A stretch of DNA of 64,000 nucleotides from an uncultured Acidimicrobiales bacterium (GCA_963925805.1 CAWUSE010000004.1:52467-116466); one strand, 5' to 3'. Shown: positions 1 to 7,926, numbered from the stretch's first letter. The notes: generated from the sequence alone by a model not told the origin. A program made the numbers and translations.

Positions 1-1521
1 CTCGCTTTTCCGTTGCGCCATGAATGCAAGCAAAGCCTCGTCGATGGACGAGTCCAGTGGTGGTGCTTCGTATTCGACCAGGAGTTGCTTCCATTTGGCG
101 TTGGCGCGCTGCGCTGATGTGAGGCTGCCTTCTTCTTCCCAGCTCTCAAAGCTGTCATTGTTGGCTTGCTCTGAGCGCCAGAACGCGGCTTCGAAGTTGG
201 CGAGCGTATGGGCATTGCCGAGGAAATGCTGGCCGTGTTCGTTGGTGCGGAATGCGTCCATTGCTTGGCCGTTCTCGGACATATCGATGCCGCGTCCATG
301 AACTGTCATAGCGCCAAGCTGGTCGGCGTCGAGAATGAGTTTCTCGTAGCCAATCGACAGACCGCCTTCTTGCCAGCCTGCGGCGTGAAGTACGAAGTTA
401 ACTCCGGCTTGCACCGTTGGGATCAGACTATGTGCAGACTCGTACGCGGCCTGGGCGTCGGGATACTTCGACGCGGTGAACTGGCCACCAGAACGGAATG
501 GGACACCGACGCGCCGGGCGAGTCCTGCCATGACATGGATGGCCTGACCGGCTTCGGGTGTGCCAAATGTTGGGGCGCCCGTTGCCATAGACATCGAGCT
601 GGCGAAGGTGCCGAAGATGACAGGAGCGCCGGGCCGCACAAGCTGGTAATAAGCCATGCCCGATAGTGCTTCGGCAAGTGACTGCGCAGCAAGACCGGCA
701 ACGGTCACCGGCGACATCGCCCCCGCCAGAATGAATGGCGAAAGGATCGAAGCCTGGTTCGCCTTGGCGTAGGCGGTCGCAGCGCCAAGCATTGTGCCGT
801 CCCAGCGCAGCGGTGACGAGGCATTGATCAGCGAGGTCATGACTGTGCGGTCTTGCAAGTCCCCGCCGAACGCGATGCGGCTCAGCTCGATGGAGTCCTG
901 GGCCCGTTCGGCTGCGGTAACTGACCCCATGTATGGCTTATCGCTGTATTTGATGTGCGAGTAGACCATATCGAGATGGCGCTTGTTGACAGGGGTGTCG
1001 ACTGGCTCACAGACGGTGCCGCCCGAATGGTGCAGATGCGGAAGCTGGTACACGAGCTTGACAATGTTCTGGAAGTCTTCGAGCGTGGCATATCTACGAC
1101 CGTTGTCGAGGTCCATAGCGAACGGTGAGCCGTAGTTGGGCGCGAACACCGTTGCGTTACCGCCGATCTGCACACTGCGTGCGGAGTTCCGAGCGTGCTG
1201 TGTGAACACCTTGGGTGCATTGTCCTGCACAAGCTGGCGACACATTCCTTTGGGGAAGTGGACCATGTCGCCCCGGACGTCGGCCCCGGCCTCTTTCCAG
1301 AGCTCAAGCGCCGACGGGAAGTCCTGGAAGGCAACACCAACTTCTTCCAGGATGATGTCGGCGTTCGCTTCGATTGTGGCGTACGCCTCATCGTCAATCA
1401 GGTCGACCGGCGCGAGTCGGCGTTCAAGCCACGCTGCGGTTTCGGTCTTAGTCGCGCGCGCGGCTTGGCGGCCTGAGCGGCCACCTCCGCGGCGGCCCTT
1501 ACGTGCGGGTGCATCAGACAT
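1..1521 (-). CDS. MttB-superfamily (non-pyrrolysine) methylamine/quaternary-amine:corrinoid methyltransferase; 3' end cut by window edge
   Basis: Absent from the ORF track because there is no stop in the window. My own translation of the minus strand from ATG at 1521 (GGAG 7 nt upstream) stays open for 507 codons to base 1: MSDAPARKGRRGGGRSGRQAAR...GGNATVFAPNYGSPFAMDLDNGRRYATLEDFQNIVKLVYQLPHLHHSGGTVCEPVDTPVNKRHLDMVYSHIKYSDKPYMG... This reads as the COG5598/MttB TIM-barrel family. No in-frame TAG. Confidence 0.85.
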   Translation of the reverse strand, partial: MSDAPARKGRRGGGRSGRQAARATKTETAAWLERRLAPVDLIDDEAYATIEANADIILEEVGVAFQDFPSALELWKEAGADVRGDMVHFPKGMCRQLVQDNAPKVFTQHARNSARSVQIGGNATVFAPNYGSPFAMDLDNGRRYATLEDFQNIVKLVYQLPHLHHSGGTVCEPVDTPVNKRHLDMVYSHIKYSDKPYMGSVTAAERAQDSIELSRIAFGGDLQDRTVMTSLINASSPLRWDGTMLGAATAYAKANQASILSPFILAGAMSPVTVAGLAAQSLAEALSGMAYYQLVRPGAPVIFGTFASSMSMATGAPTFGTPEAGQAIHVMAGLARRVGVPFRSGGQFTASKYPDAQAAYESAHSLIPTVQAGVNFVLHAAGWQEGGLSIGYEKLILDADQLGAMTVHGRGIDMSENGQAMDAFRTNEHGQHFLGNAHTLANFEAAFWRSEQANNDSFESWEEEGSLTSAQRANAKWKQLLVEYEAPPLDSSIDEALLAFMAQRKSE

Positions 1522-1548
1522 ATTGGATCTCCTAGGTGCTGGTTGGTA

Positions 1549-3534
1549 TCAGCGACGGCGTGAGCGGCGTCGACGCCCGCCCTCGTGTGCGGCCTTTGGT
1601 GCGGTGGAACGGGGGAAGCCGAGTGCGGTCACGAAGTGCTCTTGGAAACGGGGTTCGGTTGCCGTCTCAATTTTGATCACGTCCTGAACCACGGCTTCCA
1701 CTTGGGTGCGTTGCTCTGCGCTCAATAAGAGCCGGACGGCGCCACTGCCCGCAGAATTTCCCACGGCGTGCACATTGGCGACGTCGATCTCAGGGATCAG
1801 CCCGACGACCATTGCATGGGTGGGGTCGATGTGGGCCCCGAAGGCGCCAGCCAGCCGAATTTCATCGACAGCCGAGAGTCCGGCGTGTTCCATCAGCAGG
1901 TCGATTCCCGCTTTTAGAGCAGCTTTGGCTAGTTGTATTGCTCGGACATCGGCCTGGGTTACGAAGATGTCTGCGACGAGCAGGAAGTTGTAGGTGCGGC
2001 CGTCTTCGACGATGCGGTCAGTGTCGGTGGCGAGCTCGCCCCTGATCACACCAGAGTGGTCGATGATGCCCGCGCTGACCATCTCCGAGATCGCCTCGAT
2101 GATTCCGGATCCACAGATACCGGTGATTCCTGAAGCGTCGATTTCCGCGCTGAAACCGATCTCATTTGACCAGAGATCCGAGCCGATGACCTTGAAAATG
2201 ACGTCATAGGTATCACGATCAATAGCGACTCGCTCGATGGCCCCTGCCGTTGCTCGCTGACCGGAACTGATCTGAGCGCCTTCAAATGCCGGGCCGGTTG
2301 GGCTGGAGCACGCGAACAGTTGCTGGCTGTTGCCGAGCACGATCTCGGCATTGGTCCCAACATCTACTAAGAGCTGGATGGCGTCTGAGCGGTGCGGCCC
2401 TTCGTTGAGGATCGCGGCGGCAGTATCTGCACCCACATGGCCGGCAATACATGGGGCCACGTACAGCATCGCGTTCGGCAGGTCGAGTTCGATATGGGCT
2501 GCAGTGGCGGCGAACGCGCCCTCGATCGCGAGTGGGAACGGCGACTGGCCGAGTGGTGTTGGGTCGAGCCCGAGCACCAGATGGTGCATGATCGGGTTGC
2601 CGACGAGGGTGACATCGACGATACGTGAGCGTTCAATACCGGCAGTTTCGCATAGCTCGGTGACGATCTGGTTTAGCGCAGCCCGCACTTCCTTAGTGAG
2701 CTCTGCCTCACCACCTGGATTCATCATTACGTAGCTCACGCGACTCATCAGGTCTTCGCCAAACCTGATCTGGGGGTTCATCTGCCCTGCGGTCGATAGA
2801 ACTTCGCCGTTCGCCAGGTCGATGAGATGGCCAGCGATCGTGGTTGAGCCAACGTCGACGGCTACGCCCATCAAACGATCGATATAACCGGGCCAGAAAG
2901 CAGCCACCGAAGTGCCACCGCTGCGACGTTCGAGCGCGACTGTGATGTTGGACCGGAAGTTATCGAGTGCGACGGTTCGACGAGGTCCGTTCAGCGTCAC
3001 GCCCCACTGAGCGTCCAACGCTTGGGCGATTCCACCAGCTTCGGCCACATCCGTCAGGTAGTGCAGCGAGTAGATCGGGTCGATAACGAGTTCACCGACA
3101 TCGACTGTTTTGCGGATGACCTGCTTGTGTATCTGGCTCTCGGGGGGAATATCGATGACGATATTGCCGCAGATCTTGGCCGAGCAGCCAAGCCGTCTAC
3201 CTTCGACGATGGCCCGCTTGCCTGCGTAGCTCTCTTCGAGAAGGCCCCACGGCGATAGTGCTCTATCGTCGACGGTGATGGCCCATTTTGCGAATTCACC
3301 GGTGCTCGGCTTGATCTGGCAGCGCCCACAGATTCCGCGTCCACCACAGACCGTGTCGAGGTCAGCGCCGAGTTGCACCGCAGCATCGAGCACCGTCGTA
3401 CCGTCTGCGACCGCCCCGCTGAGGCCTGAGGGCGTGAAGACAACAGTATGAGAACCTGAGCTATCGGAGGCTGGTGCTGGTGCGACGGCGCGAGCGTTGG
3501 CTGGTGCTGCTGCGACGGCGCGAAGTTCGGTCAT
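1549..3534 (-). CDS. Corrinoid reductive activase (RACo/RamA-like): 2Fe-2S ferredoxin domain fused to an ASKHA-type ATPase (DUF4445)
   Basis: 661 aa. Has the N-terminal CGGRGICGRCQ cluster motif, then actin/sugar-kinase-like ATPase segments (VAVDVGSTTIAGHL, LLVDVGTNAEIV, ICGSGII). Ends 27 nt before the MttB start and begins 10 nt after the MT2 stop. Confidence 0.8.
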   Translation of the reverse strand: MTELRAVAAAPANARAVAPAPASDSSGSHTVVFTPSGLSGAVADGTTVLDAAVQLGADLDTVCGGRGICGRCQIKPSTGEFAKWAITVDDRALSPWGLLEESYAGKRAIVEGRRLGCSAKICGNIVIDIPPESQIHKQVIRKTVDVGELVIDPIYSLHYLTDVAEAGGIAQALDAQWGVTLNGPRRTVALDNFRSNITVALERRSGGTSVAAFWPGYIDRLMGVAVDVGSTTIAGHLIDLANGEVLSTAGQMNPQIRFGEDLMSRVSYVMMNPGGEAELTKEVRAALNQIVTELCETAGIERSRIVDVTLVGNPIMHHLVLGLDPTPLGQSPFPLAIEGAFAATAAHIELDLPNAMLYVAPCIAGHVGADTAAAILNEGPHRSDAIQLLVDVGTNAEIVLGNSQQLFACSSPTGPAFEGAQISSGQRATAGAIERVAIDRDTYDVIFKVIGSDLWSNEIGFSAEIDASGITGICGSGIIEAISEMVSAGIIDHSGVIRGELATDTDRIVEDGRTYNFLLVADIFVTQADVRAIQLAKAALKAGIDLLMEHAGLSAVDEIRLAGAFGAHIDPTHAMVVGLIPEIDVANVHAVGNSAGSGAVRLLLSAEQRTQVEAVVQDVIKIETATEPRFQEHFVTALGFPRSTAPKAAHEGGRRRRSRRR

Positions 3535-3544
3535 GACAGGCTAC

Positions 3545-4450
3545 TCAGCCCCGTCGGCGGCGACCGCCAGCGCGTCGGCGGGCTGCGCCTTCGCCACCGC
3601 CTGCGGTGGGGTCACGATTCGCAGCGATCCATGCCGCGCAGTTTTGATCGTTGCCGGTCAGGACATCGGCGGCCATGATGGCGGTCGTGACTTCGCTGTG
3701 AAGCGGATTCATGATTGCACTCGTCATGCCTGCGCCCATGGCCATTGAGAGGAAGGCGCCGGTGATGTTGTGTTTGTTGGGCAGCCCAAAACTCACGTTC
3801 GAGGCCCCGCAGATCGTGTTGACGTGCAATTCTTCGCGCAGGCGCCGAACCAGGCGAAACACCTGTTGGCCAGCAGTGCCCATCGCCCCGATCGGCATGA
3901 CTAATGGATCCACAATCACGTCGCTATGGTGGATGCCATGGTCAGCAGCTCGCTCAACGATCTTTTTGGCTACGGCAAACCGGACATCAGGGTCCTCGCT
4001 AATGCCAGTCTCATCATTGCTGATGGCCACCACTGCAGCGCCCGACTTTTTTACTAACGGGAGCACTCGTTCTAGGACGTCATCTTCGCCGGTTACCGAG
4101 TTGATGAGTGGTTTACCCTGATAGACCTCAATACCGGCTTCGAGCGCCTCGATGATCGATGAGTCGATCGCCAGCGGGACATCGGTTATTGACTGCACCA
4201 GTTTGATGGCTTGGGCCAGCATGGCCGGTTCATCGGCTAACGGGATGCCTGCATTCACATCGAGCATGTGGGCGCCGGCGGCGACCTGCGCCAATGCATC
4301 GGCTTCGACCCGGCTGAAGTCGCCGTCCTTCATCTCTTGCGCCAATAGCTTGCGCCCTGTCGGGTTGATGCGCTCACCGATCATCACAAACGGGCGATCG
4401 AATCCGATTACCACATCCTTGGTTGCCGAGCTGATAACGGTTTCGGTCAT
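3545..4450 (-). CDS. Methyltetrahydrofolate:corrinoid methyltransferase (pterin-binding, MeTr/AcsE/MtgA-like MT2)
   Basis: Pterin-binding barrel signature: FVMIGERINPTGRKLLAQEM, HMLDVNAG, PLAIDSS, PLINSVTGE, ICGASNVSFGLP. I prefer the internal ATG at 4450 (GAGGA 5 nt upstream) over the ORF-track start at 4582. The extra 44 aa look non-protein-like and would overlap the upstream gene. Confidence 0.8.
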   Translation of the reverse strand: MTETVISSATKDVVIGFDRPFVMIGERINPTGRKLLAQEMKDGDFSRVEADALAQVAAGAHMLDVNAGIPLADEPAMLAQAIKLVQSITDVPLAIDSSIIEALEAGIEVYQGKPLINSVTGEDDVLERVLPLVKKSGAAVVAISNDETGISEDPDVRFAVAKKIVERAADHGIHHSDVIVDPLVMPIGAMGTAGQQVFRLVRRLREELHVNTICGASNVSFGLPNKHNITGAFLSMAMGAGMTSAIMNPLHSEVTTAIMAADVLTGNDQNCAAWIAANRDPTAGGGEGAARRRAGGRRRRG

Positions 4451-4541
4451 GTGTTCCTCGATGCGCTGCTCGCAGCGTCGATGCGCTGCGGGTCCTTTGC
4501 GGGTTCTTCTGGTTTCGTTGTTTGGGGGAGCCGATGCGTGA

Positions 4542-4880
4542 TCATGGGGTGAGGCCGCCGTTGTCGATGAGCTTGCGAACACGCTCGCTTGTGTAGAGGC
4601 CGTGCAGTCGCGCTGCTTCGGATTGGGCGATCGCCTCAGGATCGCCAGCGCACGGCTCGCTTACCCGGCGCCACTGCAGGACATAGTCGTCAGCGTTTGT
4701 TAGGCCGGCCACACCTGCAGCGCTGTCGATGGCGAGTTGAAACCGCTTTTCGAGCAGCCACGAGCTTTTTTTGCCGTTGGTTGTAGCGGTCACTTGCGCA
4801 GGAATATCGCGCCAGTAGATAGTGACCATTTCATTGACCTTGGTTCGACGGCGGCGCCGAGGCGCATCGACCGAGTCCAT
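4542..4880 (-). CDS. Small conserved protein of unknown function (the family annotated 'virulence factor' that accompanies MttB/corrinoid operons)
   Basis: Core MVTIYWRDIPAQVTA...LEKRFQLAIDSAAG...DDYVLQWRR matches my memory of the YWRDIPAQV small-protein family. The start is taken at the ATG overlapping the upstream stop (TGATG at 4878-4882); an alternative ATG lies at 4829. Confidence 0.55.
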   Translation of the reverse strand: MDSVDAPRRRRRTKVNEMVTIYWRDIPAQVTATTNGKKSSWLLEKRFQLAIDSAAGVAGLTNADDYVLQWRRVSEPCAGDPEAIAQSEAARLHGLYTSERVRKLIDNGGLTP

Positions 4881-5590
4881 CAGGCGGCAGCGCGTCGGGC
4901 TGAGACCATAGTTGTGGCCATCTCGGCGGCGACCGCAGCATCGCGGCAATACCCGTCGGCGCCGATGGCATCACCGAACTCCTGGTTTAGTGGCGCACCA
5001 CCAACCAAGATGATGTAGTCGTCGCGCAGGCCTTTCTCGGTCATTGTGTCGATGACGACCTTCATGTACGGCATCGTCGTAGTGAGCAGAGCGGACATTC
5101 CCAAGATGTCTGGCTGATGTTCCTCGAGCGCGGCTAGGTATTCGTCGACATCGGTGTTGATCCCCAGGTCGATGACTTCGAAGCCAGCGCCCTCCATCAT
5201 CATCGCAACCAGGTTCTTACCAATGTCGTGGATATCGCCTTTGACGGTGCCGATTACGACTTTGCCGACAGGCTTGGCGCCTGTTTCGGCGAGTAGCGGG
5301 CGCAGGATGAACATGCCGGCCTTCATGGCGTTCGCAGCTAAGAGGACCTCAGGGACGAACAGGATTCCGTCGCGAAAATCGATCCCGACGATGCGCATTC
5401 CTTCGACAAGAGCGTCACTGAGTACCTTGTCGGCGCTCCATCCTCGTTTAAGCAGGATGTTTGTGCCCTCGGTTATCTCGTCGGCGAGACCGTCGTAGAG
5501 ATCATCGTGCATCTGGGCGGTCAAATCGTCGTCGTCGAGTTCGGCCAGGATGATCTCGTCATCTTCGTCGGGTGCTTCATTGTCAGCCAC
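4880..5590 (-). CDS. Cobalamin-binding corrinoid carrier protein (MtgC/MtmC-like)
   Basis: 236 aa. B12-binding helical cap followed by a Rossmann domain with the DxHxxG motif (VKGDIHDIGKN), SALLTTT and GGAPLNQEF. Has an unusually acidic roughly 30-aa N-terminal extension (MADNEAPDEDDEIILAELDDDDL...). Confidence 0.85.
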   Translation of the reverse strand: MADNEAPDEDDEIILAELDDDDLTAQMHDDLYDGLADEITEGTNILLKRGWSADKVLSDALVEGMRIVGIDFRDGILFVPEVLLAANAMKAGMFILRPLLAETGAKPVGKVVIGTVKGDIHDIGKNLVAMMMEGAGFEVIDLGINTDVDEYLAALEEHQPDILGMSALLTTTMPYMKVVIDTMTEKGLRDDYIILVGGAPLNQEFGDAIGADGYCRDAAVAAEMATTMVSARRAAA

Positions 5591-5753
5591 AGTTCAGCCT
5601 CAACTCAGTTGTTACCTACAGGCAAGCGGCACGTCGGGCACGTTGTACCGCATTGTGGAACGGTACCGTATCACGGAACAATAGGGCTGGGGTGGGAGTG
5701 GCCCGGACGCCAGTCTCAAGCGCCTCCTGAATGTGTAGTTGGCGTGAAAACGT

Positions 5754-5786
5754 GTCAATGCCCGGCCGTTTGAGCCGGGCATTGAC
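5754..5786 (-). terminator. Rho-independent-type terminator hairpin downstream of the flp gene
   Basis: Perfect 13-bp stem GTCAATGCCCGGC / GCCGGGCATTGAC with a 7-nt loop. On the minus strand it is followed by ACGTTTTC. It lies 70 nt after the flp stop. Confidence 0.6.
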
Positions 5787-5855
5787 ATAGTGATGTTGAT
5801 TTACAGATGGTGACCAGCCACCTTGCTCAGCGCTAGCACCCCAGACTCACTGGAC

Positions 5856-6056
5856 CTATGGGGCGGCGGGGATGCCGGCGTCTAGTTGGGTTTGGGCTGA
5901 TGTGAAAACACCTTTGATGCTTTGGCCAAATGCTGCCAGAACAATGATTGCTGCGAGAGCAACGAGGGCGAGGAGCAGGCCGTATTCAGCCATTGCTGCG
6001 CCGCGTTCTCTGCGATCTGCAGCCACGTTTTGGAGATGAACTATTATTTTGATCAT
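5856..6056 (-). CDS. flp: Flp/Fap family type IVb pilin precursor
   Basis: MIKIIVHLQNVAADRRERG|AAMAEYGLLLALVALAAIIVLAAF has the Flp prepilin motif (G/xxxxEYG followed by a hydrophobic helix). Start taken at ATG 6056; the ORF-track extension to 6125 is AT-rich leader. Confidence 0.7.
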   Translation of the reverse strand: MIKIIVHLQNVAADRRERGAAMAEYGLLLALVALAAIIVLAAFGQSIKGVFTSAQTQLDAGIPAAP

Positions 6057-6248
6057 TAGTTCCGTCTTTCTAAAAAATCGATCAGGCCGGGTGCCAGTGG
6101 ATACGTGACCCATCGGCCCCACCATATAAGTGCTTAGCTTTTAAATTAATTCCATACTCAGTTTAACAGATAATGGGCCGTATGGCCCGGGTGGGTCGTT
6201 TCGAGTCCGTATGGCCAAGGATTTTGCAGCAACGTGTAATCCGTCGAC

Positions 6249-6866
6249 GTGCAGGCCGTTGTTGCTACTGGGTATCGAATCTCGATATCGCTCGAAAGGA
6301 AATACTCATATGGAAATGTTTGCGTCTTCTCCGCATACTCAGTGTGGGCAGCGTTGGCCAAAGCTTACGCTGGCTACCGCAGTCGTCCTGGCACTCTTTT
6401 TCTCCACCGTCGGGACCGCCGATGCTCAAACTGAACGAGCCCGTTCGCCGCAAGTTGAACCAGTGCGAGCTGCACTACAGGCCGAGACGTTGCGCCATGT
6501 CAGTTACTAGAAGGCAACTAGAAACACCCCTCAGCCACTGCCGACATTTCCGACGATGCGGGCACGGTGGTACTCAATTATGCGGCTGGTCCAAGCGGTG
6601 GCTCGCTTCGACAAATGTTCAGTGATTTATGTGAGTGGACATCTCGTTCCTATTCGCCTTATCCGGGTCTCCGAACAGCTTCTGGAGCCCTTGGCGACTT
6701 CAACGACAAGTTCATGGTGAACACCTGAGTGGTAGGTGGTGGCTACGTCGGAACGACACCTGGCCCTGTTCGTGCCACCCATCACAACTTTTCCTGCTGG
6801 CGACCCGATGACATTTTTCAGGTGCTCGTCTGGCCCGCAACGTGTAATTCGCCAATAATCTGGTAG
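6249..6866 (+). pseudogene. egtB: egtB (hercynine sulfoxide synthase) remnant; C-terminal FGE-sulfatase-like part only, with multiple in-frame stops
   Basis: One reading frame gives ...SLRQMFSDLCEWTSRSYSPYPGLRTASGALGDFNDKFMVNT*VVGGGYVGTTPGPVRATHHNFSCWRPDDIFQVL... This parallels the EgtB C-terminus as I recall it (GDVWEWTSSPY.PYPGF.P..GAVGEYNGKFM..QMVLRGGSCATP.GH.RA.YRNFF.PD.RWQF.GLR). In-frame stops at 6432, 6456, 6519 and 6726, with no frameshift. The N-terminal DinB half is absent. Confidence 0.6.
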
Positions 6867-6954
6867 CCAGCCCGCTCACGTCAGCTTCGCCCCTTATTCC
6901 TGCTCGATGCCTCGTGGCCCTACTGGCCTTACCCCCCAAAAAAGAGAAAACACA

Positions 6955-7926
6955 ATGACTGCCGCTCGTATTGATGTACACCTTGAACCCAGCTGGTGGC
7001 GAACGACGCTGGAACACGACGTGCGGACGGGGCTGGTCGCAGAGCAGCGCAGCATCCCTGCGAAATGGTTCTACGACGAAATCGGCTGCCAGCTATTTGA
7101 TGACATAACCAAGCTCGACGAGTACTACCCCTTTCGGGCTGAGCGCGACATCCTGGCGACGCGAGCGAACGAGATCGTCGCCGTAGCTGAAGCCGACACG
7201 TTGGTCGAACTTGGCTCTGGGACCAGCGAAAAGAGTCGCGTGTTACTCGATGCGATGGCGGATGCCCACGTGCTGAAGCGATACGTGCCATTCGACGTTA
7301 GCGAAGAGACATTGCGTTCGGCCGCGGATCAAATAGCGACCGACTATCCCGGCACCGCGGTGCACGGCATCGTGGGTGACTTCGATCGACACATCCCTCT
7401 CGTACCTATTGGAGGAATGGGCATGGTGGCTTTTTTGGGTAGCACGATTGGCAATTTCGAGCCCAGCGCTCGTAAGCGCTTCATCGCCGACGTTGTCGCG
7501 GCGCTTGAACCCGATGGCACCTTCTTGCTGGGCACTGACCTGGTCAAGGATCCGGACCGCTTGTGGGCGGCATACAACGATGCGAAGGGCGTGACGGCTC
7601 AGTTCAATCTGAACATGCTCACCATGATCAACCGTGAGTTGAACGCAGACTTTGACCTCGATCAATTTGAGCATGCTGCCGACTGGGATGCCGACAACGA
7701 ATGGATTGATATCCGCGTTCGAAGCAAGGTGGCCCAAACGGTGCAGGTGCGAGATCTGGACCTGGTCGTCGAGTTCGTGGCAGGAGAAGAGATGAAAACA
7801 GAGATCAGTGCCAAGTTTCGGCTTGGGGGCATAGCCGCTGAACTTGAAGCTGCAGGTTTGACTGTCGTCGAGCAATGGACAGACAGCTACGGTGACTTTG
7901 CAGTGACGCTCGCCCGCAAGCGCTGA
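6955..7926 (+). CDS. egtD: L-histidine N-alpha-methyltransferase EgtD (hercynine synthase)
   Basis: Co-linear with mycobacterial EgtD as I remember it: PKWFYD..G..LFD.IT.L.EYYP, DTLVELGSGTSEKSR.LLDAM, FLGSTIGN, LLGTDLVKD, GVTAQFN.N.L..INREL.ADFDLD.FEH. Start at ATG 6955 (MTAARIDVHL). Confidence 0.9.
   Translation: MTAARIDVHLEPSWWRTTLEHDVRTGLVAEQRSIPAKWFYDEIGCQLFDDITKLDEYYPFRAERDILATRANEIVAVAEADTLVELGSGTSEKSRVLLDAMADAHVLKRYVPFDVSEETLRSAADQIATDYPGTAVHGIVGDFDRHIPLVPIGGMGMVAFLGSTIGNFEPSARKRFIADVVAALEPDGTFLLGTDLVKDPDRLWAAYNDAKGVTAQFNLNMLTMINRELNADFDLDQFEHAADWDADNEWIDIRVRSKVAQTVQVRDLDLVVEFVAGEEMKTEISAKFRLGGIAAELEAAGLTVVEQWTDSYGDFAVTLARKR

Follow-up and report, generated by a model that had tools for sequence, protein, structure and literature searches.

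Why does a small and very acidic B12 carrier protein lie in one operon with enzymes that each begin or end in a run of arginine residues? The question is posed by five tightly spaced, co-directional genes, mtgC, a gene for a small PF13769 protein, mtgD, ramA and mttB, which occupy positions 1-5590 on the minus strand of a 64-kb stretch of DNA (the window) from an uncultured Acidimicrobiales bacterium (GCA_963925805.1; CAWUSE010000004.1:52467-116466). A preliminary description of this DNA had paired an acidic extension on the carrier with Arg-rich termini on the proteins that must dock on it. Comparison with 160 related loci from four phyla (80 metagenome loci, and 80 genome loci belonging to the Acidimicrobiia, Thermoleophilia, Chloroflexota, and Alpha- and Gammaproteobacteria) bears out that such termini mark the partners of the carrier, among them MtgE, a stand-alone homocysteine S-methyltransferase that the preliminary description did not include. 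That the Arg clusters capture the carrier electrostatically is the best reading, one that we hold with slightly better than even confidence; the physical binding, its site and the kinetic benefit are what we infer from the sequences.

Charged termini on the carrier and its partners

The carrier (236 residues; 5590..4880, minus strand) comprises a B12-binding_2 cap (PF02607) and a B12-binding Rossmann domain (PF02310). Its acidic N-terminal region, residues 1-30 (5501..5590, minus strand), contains 14 Asp/Glu and no Lys or Arg, just as the preliminary description had counted, and has a net charge of -14, that of the whole carrier being -28. The start codon is GTG, with a GAGG Shine-Dalgarno site 8 nucleotides upstream, and is trusted because both this site and 120 homologues (at least 84% identical) support it. 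The word "tail," originally applied to the entire region, fits residues 1-10, a floppy polyacidic leader of variable length among homologues with a predicted local distance difference test (pLDDT) score of 37 in the AlphaFold2 model, but not residues 11-30, which are predicted to be ordered (pLDDT 86-90). Residues 11-19 (DEIILAELD) form a conserved ordered segment, and residues 20-30 (DDDLTAQMHDD) open the acidified first helix of the four-helix cap, modeled as residues 20-33. All 120 homologues possess the motif phi-phi-L-x-x-L-x-D-[DE]-[DE]-L-T-A-QMHDDLYDG, with 8-17 Asp/Glu; the conserved segment shows hydrophobic periodicity and QMHDDLYDG is nearly invariant. Lys and Arg are absent from the acidic region in 114 of these proteins, and in the other six are confined to over-extended annotated starts and one internal Arg.

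The MttB-family methyltransferase (MT1; 1521..<1, minus strand) begins MSDAPARKGRRGGGRSGRQAAR, and its N-terminal extension, residues 1-38 (1408..1521, minus strand; net +7), holds the Arg motif KGRRGGGRSGRQAAR. The MtgD-type pterin-binding methyltransferase (MT2; 4450..3545, minus strand) ends ...GAARRRAGGRRRRG, its tail DPTAGGGEGAARRRAGGRRRRG together with the stop codon (3545..3613, minus strand; net +5) lying beyond the end of the Pterin_bind domain, and the RamA/RACo-like reductive activase (3534..1549, minus strand) ends ...HEGGRRRRSRRR, with the tail STAPKAAHEGGRRRRSRRR and stop codon at 1549..1608 (minus strand; net +7). The small PF13769 ("Virulence_fact") protein (4880..4542, minus strand) begins MDSVDAPRRRRRTK, and its N-terminal Arg run (APRRRRRTK) is encoded at approximately 4839-4880 (minus strand). 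All five terminal sequences quoted in the preliminary description are present.

Charge counts reveal that the partner termini, at net +5 to +7, are the only basic elements on otherwise acidic proteins, the folded cores of which carry -32 (activase), -13 (MT2) and -20 (MttB). In the AlphaFold2 model of the activase, residues 645-661 have pLDDT values below 50 and no secondary structure. The clusters sit at the ends of linkers: the tail extends beyond the domain by a median of 36 residues in the activase and 24 in MT2, and a median of four residues separates the last RR from the C-terminus. Each cluster consists of 4-7 Arg and is confined to one terminus per enzyme, this being the N-terminus of MttB and the C-terminus of MtgD, the RamA-like activase and MtgE; partner tail peptides include GGRRRRSRRR, ARRRAGGRRRRG and KGRRGGGRSGRQAAR. 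MtgE ends in a basic cluster such as NRRKSRRG, TPRRSRRER, RTNRRRSA or PRKRRRTR. In MttB the Arg motif lies within positions 1-15 of the Pfam MTTB profile, and MttB paralogues of only 23-28% identity still carry it. A sub-motif, RRRGGR(R/A)AR, is common to MttB N-termini, many MT2 tails and some activase tails, and its recurrence on unrelated folds suggests one common receptor. A Tat signal at the MttB N-terminus was considered and rejected, since no hydrophobic region follows it and like clusters are found at the C-termini of other partners.

Conservation, specificity and co-occurrence

A G-R-R-R-R run lies near the C-terminus of the activase, after a variable linker, in almost all of 120 homologues (58-100% identity). 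Of the 80 genome loci only L075 does not show the tail, its activase open reading frame (ORF) being cut by the end of the contig. Among 150 representatives of clusters formed at 50% identity, nearly all proteins at identities of at least 40% possess the Arg cluster and almost none at 39% or below. The exceptions at low identity include a small clade around activases P0324 and P0356, and the tail is present in 117 of 118 relatives of P0324, mostly from Rhizobiales and including cultured Mesorhizobium, Rhizobium and Sinorhizobium. P0324 and P0356 themselves (L084, 10001-11911; L087, 485-2233) are deep-branching, 33-38% identical to the window protein, and have tails of the RRRGGRR type; as stand-alone genes with no corrinoid genes nearby, they are uninformative on carrier pairing.

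Could the tails be artefacts of composition or annotation, that is, GC-rich junction sequence, stop-codon read-through or wrongly called starts? The window has a GC content of about 60%, and one ORF boundary, the MT2 start, was at first called wrongly. Against this, the tails are kept over four phyla and down to 40% identity, and their Arg residues are encoded by all six Arg codons. They persist in loci at 38-42% GC, where R/(R+K) is 0.63-0.90 in the MT2 tail versus 0.36-0.55 in the protein body, whereas tail-less loci reach 60% GC with a terminal Arg cluster on just one of their 128 genes. The tails are also independent of the downstream gene, no mttB gene following 96 of 145 tailed activases, and the carrier start is backed as described above. 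Codon usage, the low-GC loci, the high-GC tail-less loci and the independence from gene order together exclude an origin by composition, gene junction or stop-codon shift, and an artefact, refuted by the comparative data, is vanishingly improbable. Two cautions that accompanied the preliminary description are thereby answered: the C-terminal tails, conserved in homologues whatever gene lies downstream, are not recent stop-codon shifts, nor are they GC-rich junction sequence peculiar to one genome. On this comparative evidence the tails are conserved functional elements under protein-level selection.

The clusters are also specific. A 25-residue terminus was scored if any stretch of 8 residues in it held 4 or more Arg. 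Four of the five operon proteins have such a terminus, compared with none (at either end) of the other 46 genes in the window that encode 150 residues or more; the Arg fraction of the latter, 0.064, leads to a chance expectation of 0.008 clusters per terminus. In the 80 genome loci, RRRR occurs within the last 25 residues of 64 out of 1213 ORFs, 52 of which encode the activase or MT2. Of the twelve others, three are major facilitator superfamily (MFS) transporters according to Pfam, and most of the remainder, judged by eye only, are short, Arg-rich over the whole displayed end and resemble off-frame artefacts. The transporters lie near the operon in three Acidimicrobiales loci (L023, 14571-15935; L034, 13623-15212; L045, 21217-22062; all minus strand), and their RRRR is probably explained by positive-inside tails in the cytoplasm, with no connection to the carrier system. 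No Arg tails were found on the DUF1638 protein, MetF-like protein, GMC oxidoreductase, FTHFS, FolD or DAO oxidase encoded in the same operons. As far as these counts reach, the termini are conserved and restricted to the partners of the carrier, MtgE among them.

Tails and acidic carrier extensions occur together. In loci with a tailed activase, an Arg cluster is present at the C-terminus of MT2 in 115 of 117 cases, at the N-terminus of MttB in 66 of 68 and on stand-alone MtgE in all seven, while 70 of 72 carriers possess the acidic N-terminal extension. The tail-less set comprises 14 metagenomic loci with activases at 36-40% identity, several of which are short contigs; here the corresponding figures are 0/1 for MT2, 0/3 for MtgE and 0/5 for the carrier, and no MttB was found. 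Carriers of tail-less loci open with short mixed-charge helices, e.g., MATEEKKKELLEKL, and their homocysteine methyltransferases and single MT2 stop at the domain boundary. Fisher tests of tailed versus tail-less loci, not phylogenetically corrected, gave p = 1e-6 for carriers and p = 0.008 for MtgE.

A possible docking role and its alternatives

How might such termini work? The carrier is visited in turn by several enzymes with acidic folded cores (net -13 to -32), and the Arg clusters may be electrostatic hooks which capture its acidic cap and N-terminal region. They would offset the repulsion between like charges and speed up encounters, and, during displacement of the cap from the corrin, would keep the carrier close to the active site. 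Acting as non-covalent tethers in place of the covalent linkers of full-length MetH, they would let one carrier be shared among many interchangeable partners. Hooks are the simplest reading of four tagged classes, MttB, MtgD, MtgE and RamA, whose folds are unrelated, which are all net acidic as is MtgC, and which have in common only that they must dock on it.

Several observations weigh against electrostatic capture. The tailed proteins look like one clade, so the co-occurrence may reflect a single gain, and tails and acidic extension probably represent one evolutionary event. The preliminary description had suggested checking orthologues for the co-occurrence of acidic and basic tails; their presence and absence agree at the level of the clade, but within the tailed clade the counts of acidic residues and of Arg are uncorrelated (rho -0.05 to 0.19, n = 65). 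Locus L089 still has Arg tails even though the acidity of its carrier extension is slight, only three acidic residues preceding a conserved MHEDLYDG and the net charge being scored as +2. Most of the carrier "tail" is predicted by AlphaFold2 to be ordered and may be purely structural. The Arg run of the small protein, which had been listed with the others, is present in the window, but elsewhere is limited to some Acidimicrobiia and is not conserved; Proteobacterial PF13769 homologues begin directly at the conserved WRDIPAQV core.

A further point, the distribution of DUF1638, leads to an alternative in its own right. In 69 of 75 tailed carrier-bearing loci DUF1638 is adjacent or fused to the carrier, and none of the 14 tail-less loci (several of them short contigs) yielded it, so the Arg tails could target DUF1638 instead. 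The clusters would then dock on DUF1638 or on an MtgC-DUF1638 complex, and this unexplained fifth component, which the system requires, would be a hub that gathers the partners. With a median net charge of -7 its core is mildly acidic, and DUF1638 together with the RamA-like protein belongs to the same pathway by genetics, the two having a common phylogenetic profile (PMC5764234). We nevertheless consider this unlikely: all the tails are retained in the window and in L001, its closest relative, where no DUF1638 lies near the operon; DUF1638 is far less acidic than MtgC (net -28); and the clade-specific acidification of the carrier would be left unexplained. The loci grouped with the window as missing DUF1638 are L001, L016, L041, L063, L094 and L144.

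It is equally improbable, in our judgment, that the two features are functionally unrelated, the acidic region being a structural part of the cap and the Arg clusters serving each enzyme separately through charge balance, solubility or intramolecular contacts. Such a view accommodates the predicted order of carrier residues 11-33, the charge counts that fail to co-vary, the tailed locus L089 with its weakly acidic carrier, and the acidity of all partner cores. It does not account for the absence of tails from other acidic enzymes of the same operons and from the 46 other window genes, for docking on MtgC being the only property common to MttB, MtgD, MtgE and RamA, for a motif that recurs across unrelated folds as though for one receptor, or for the joint absence of all features from tail-less systems. 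Nor do we expect much of polyanions other than proteins (RNA, DNA, polyphosphate or acidic membrane lipids, for instance), which might co-localize the pathway, perhaps near a betaine transporter or in a condensate, without direct contact with the carrier. Flexibly linked clusters of 4-7 Arg bind polyanions generically, and Arg is preferred over Lys even at low GC; yet binding of this kind, which we rate as very unlikely, leaves it unclear why only carrier partners are tagged and not MetF-like proteins, FolD, FTHFS or oxidases, and how the same clade came to have a polyacidic carrier.

Electrostatic capture can be taken one step further, more tentatively and with rather less than an even chance of being right: RRRGGR(R/A)AR or GRRRR-type motifs on unrelated folds may constitute a modular docking code which licenses enzymes for a shared MtgC, with tethers that help to pull the cap off the corrin and replace the linkers of MetH. 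The clients of such a code would number dozens of MttB paralogues besides MtgD, MtgE and RamA, and the tag would point to new MtgC clients, as yet unannotated, in genomes. The pair of tag and handle offers a testable hypothesis for how at least four enzyme classes and many MttB paralogues share one B12 carrier. The tails may prove essential for complex formation in vitro, which bears on construct design, and the signature could be used to recognize new carrier clients and to separate aerobic-type from anaerobic-type systems in metagenomes.

Gene content, neighborhood and known systems

The gene content places the operon among the aerobic-type, corrinoid-dependent methyltransferase systems for quaternary amines (glycine-betaine-type), which double as split methionine synthases; for this operon the substrate and the dual role are predicted. 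Pfam and PDB matches identify the four components of an aerobic-type MtgBCD system, namely carrier, non-pyrrolysine MttB, MtgD and RamA/RACo-like activase. A scan of the 64-kb window reveals no gene for DUF1638 or MtgE anywhere in it; the operon carries the PF13769 gene in addition. The cobalt-ligand motif DxHxxG of the carrier is present as DIHDIG within GDIHDIGKN; the protein shares 72-93% identity with its counterparts in the 80 genome loci (Rhodobacterales and other Alphaproteobacteria included), and its best relatives in the PDB are 1Y80, 7XCN_M and 4JGI. The ATG of the 112-residue small protein overlaps the carrier stop codon (TGATG). Proteins of this family, with their WRDIPAQV core, accompany RamA-like activases in both tailed and tail-less systems (L103, L108 and L127), and 8 of 89 homologues have a polyacidic C-terminal tail instead of the N-terminal Arg run.

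MT2 (301 residues; PF00809, Pterin_bind) is related to the MeTr structures 2YCI and 1F6Y. Its start, placed in the preliminary description at an upstream in-frame GTG (4582), has been moved to the ATG at 4450 because homologues measure 300 residues and a GAGGAA site is found there. Between the stop codon of the small protein and this ATG lies a 91-nucleotide untranslated gap (4451-4541), the remaining operon junctions measuring 0-27 nucleotides. An Rfam scan of the whole window, gap included, found no riboswitch or other RNA family, and an RNA-level explanation for the termini was thereby ruled out. The activase (661 residues; PF17651 and PF14574; PDB match RACo, 3ZYY) consists of an N-terminal 2Fe-2S ferredoxin-like domain, a RACo middle domain and an ASKHA ATPase domain, and contains the motif CGGRGICGRC. 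It opens with an Ala/Pro-rich extension of 28 residues, MTELRAVAAAPANARAVAPAPASDSSGS (3448-3534, minus strand), which is shared only with its closest relatives and predicted to be disordered (pLDDT below 30); the true start may be downstream.

The MT1 gene begins at 1521, so that the lower limit of 1432 first set for the region cuts it. Residues 1-507 are encoded in the window and the operon continues past the window start, the last few residues falling outside; within the window the ORF contains no in-frame stop and no amber codon. Pfam assigns the protein to MTTB (PF06253, E = 1e-210), i.e., to the non-pyrrolysine quaternary-amine methyltransferases, and its closest solved relative is 4YYC (E = 1e-190). 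In Desulfitobacterium hafniense MtgB the residues which bind glycine betaine are Y97, R312, H348 and F356 (PMC13080624). Alignment reveals that MT1 keeps the equivalents of the first three, while Gly occupies the position of F356; this paralogue may therefore act on another acidic quaternary amine.

Directly upstream of the carrier gene is a gene for a Flp/Fap pilin (PF04964; 5856-6125, minus strand), and the related locus L081 has five tandem Flp genes at the same position (5139-7142). A gene for a stand-alone EgtD-like histidine N-methyltransferase (PF10017, E = 1e-106; 6907-7926, plus strand) adjoins the quaternary-amine demethylase operon. We take this enzyme to make the betaine hercynine; a Pfam scan of five neighboring genes revealed no further ergothioneine gene.

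The nearest known system is that of Ruegeria pomeroyi, in which aerobic MtgB/MtgC/MtgD proteins with a RamA-like activase act as glycine-betaine methyltransferase and split methionine synthase; in bacteria that abound in the sea and in soil, it is a major route of glycine-betaine demethylation as well as the methionine synthase (PMC12478193). The genetics of the split system with RamA-like and DUF1638 proteins come from Phaeobacter inhibens (PMC5764234). The protein families of the aerobic MtgBCD(/MtgE) system are the same as those described here, the recovered loci of Actinobacteria and Proteobacteria agree with it in gene content, and the Proteobacterial loci (Rhodobacterales included) and the activases of cultured Rhizobiales bear the same tails. 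Term searches turned up neither terminal Arg clusters nor an acidic carrier extension in either paper, and no mention of the termini in the papers on MtgB (PMC13080624) and the MttB-MttC complex (PMC9842639); full-text literature searches likewise returned no published description of them. The system itself is known and electrostatic recognition between carrier and partner is a familiar principle, but of these conserved termini we found no description.

A partial parallel is offered by MtaC, an extra N-terminal domain of which docks between MtaB subunits and stabilizes the complex (2I2X, discussed in PMC9842639), and by MttC, the cap domain of which contacts MttB (PMC9842639). The MtaC extension precedes cap helix 1, a position equivalent to residues 1-19 of the window carrier. 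The differences are that PMC9842639 mentions no matching basic tail on MtaB, whereas the window element is polyacidic and would be read by the basic tails of several partners.

Anaerobic systems (D. hafniense MtgB/MtgC, Methanosarcina MttB-MttC, and CoFeSP with MeTr and RACo) possess the same folds, the same logic of MT1, carrier and MT2, and an ATP-dependent activator. Judging from alignment boundaries they differ at the termini: D. hafniense MtgB (9YCE and 2QNE) lacks the Arg extension, 9YCE beginning at query residue 41, and so does pyrrolysine-containing MttB (7XCL); the carriers 1Y80, 4JGI and 7XCN_M (MttC) begin at query residues 22-30, with no acidic extension; and RACo (3ZYY) ends about 10 residues past its domain without a tail of the activase type. 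Carboxydothermus hydrogenoformans MeTr (2YCI) ends at the Pterin_bind boundary and has no tail of the MT2 type. The tail-less metagenomic loci show the same pattern.

Acidic hubs or shuttles that serve many partners electrostatically are exemplified by acyl carrier protein, which meets Arg/Lys patches on its enzymes, and by the acidic C-terminal tail of SSB. There a folded surface supplies the basic element as a patch or pocket, in contrast to the disordered terminal Arg clusters on unrelated folds considered here, and no homology is implied. Full-length MetH assembles the same modules (homocysteine, folate, cap plus B12, and activation) around one cobalamin. Its modules are joined by covalent linkers, for which a split system would need a non-covalent substitute, and this is the role proposed for the charged termini.

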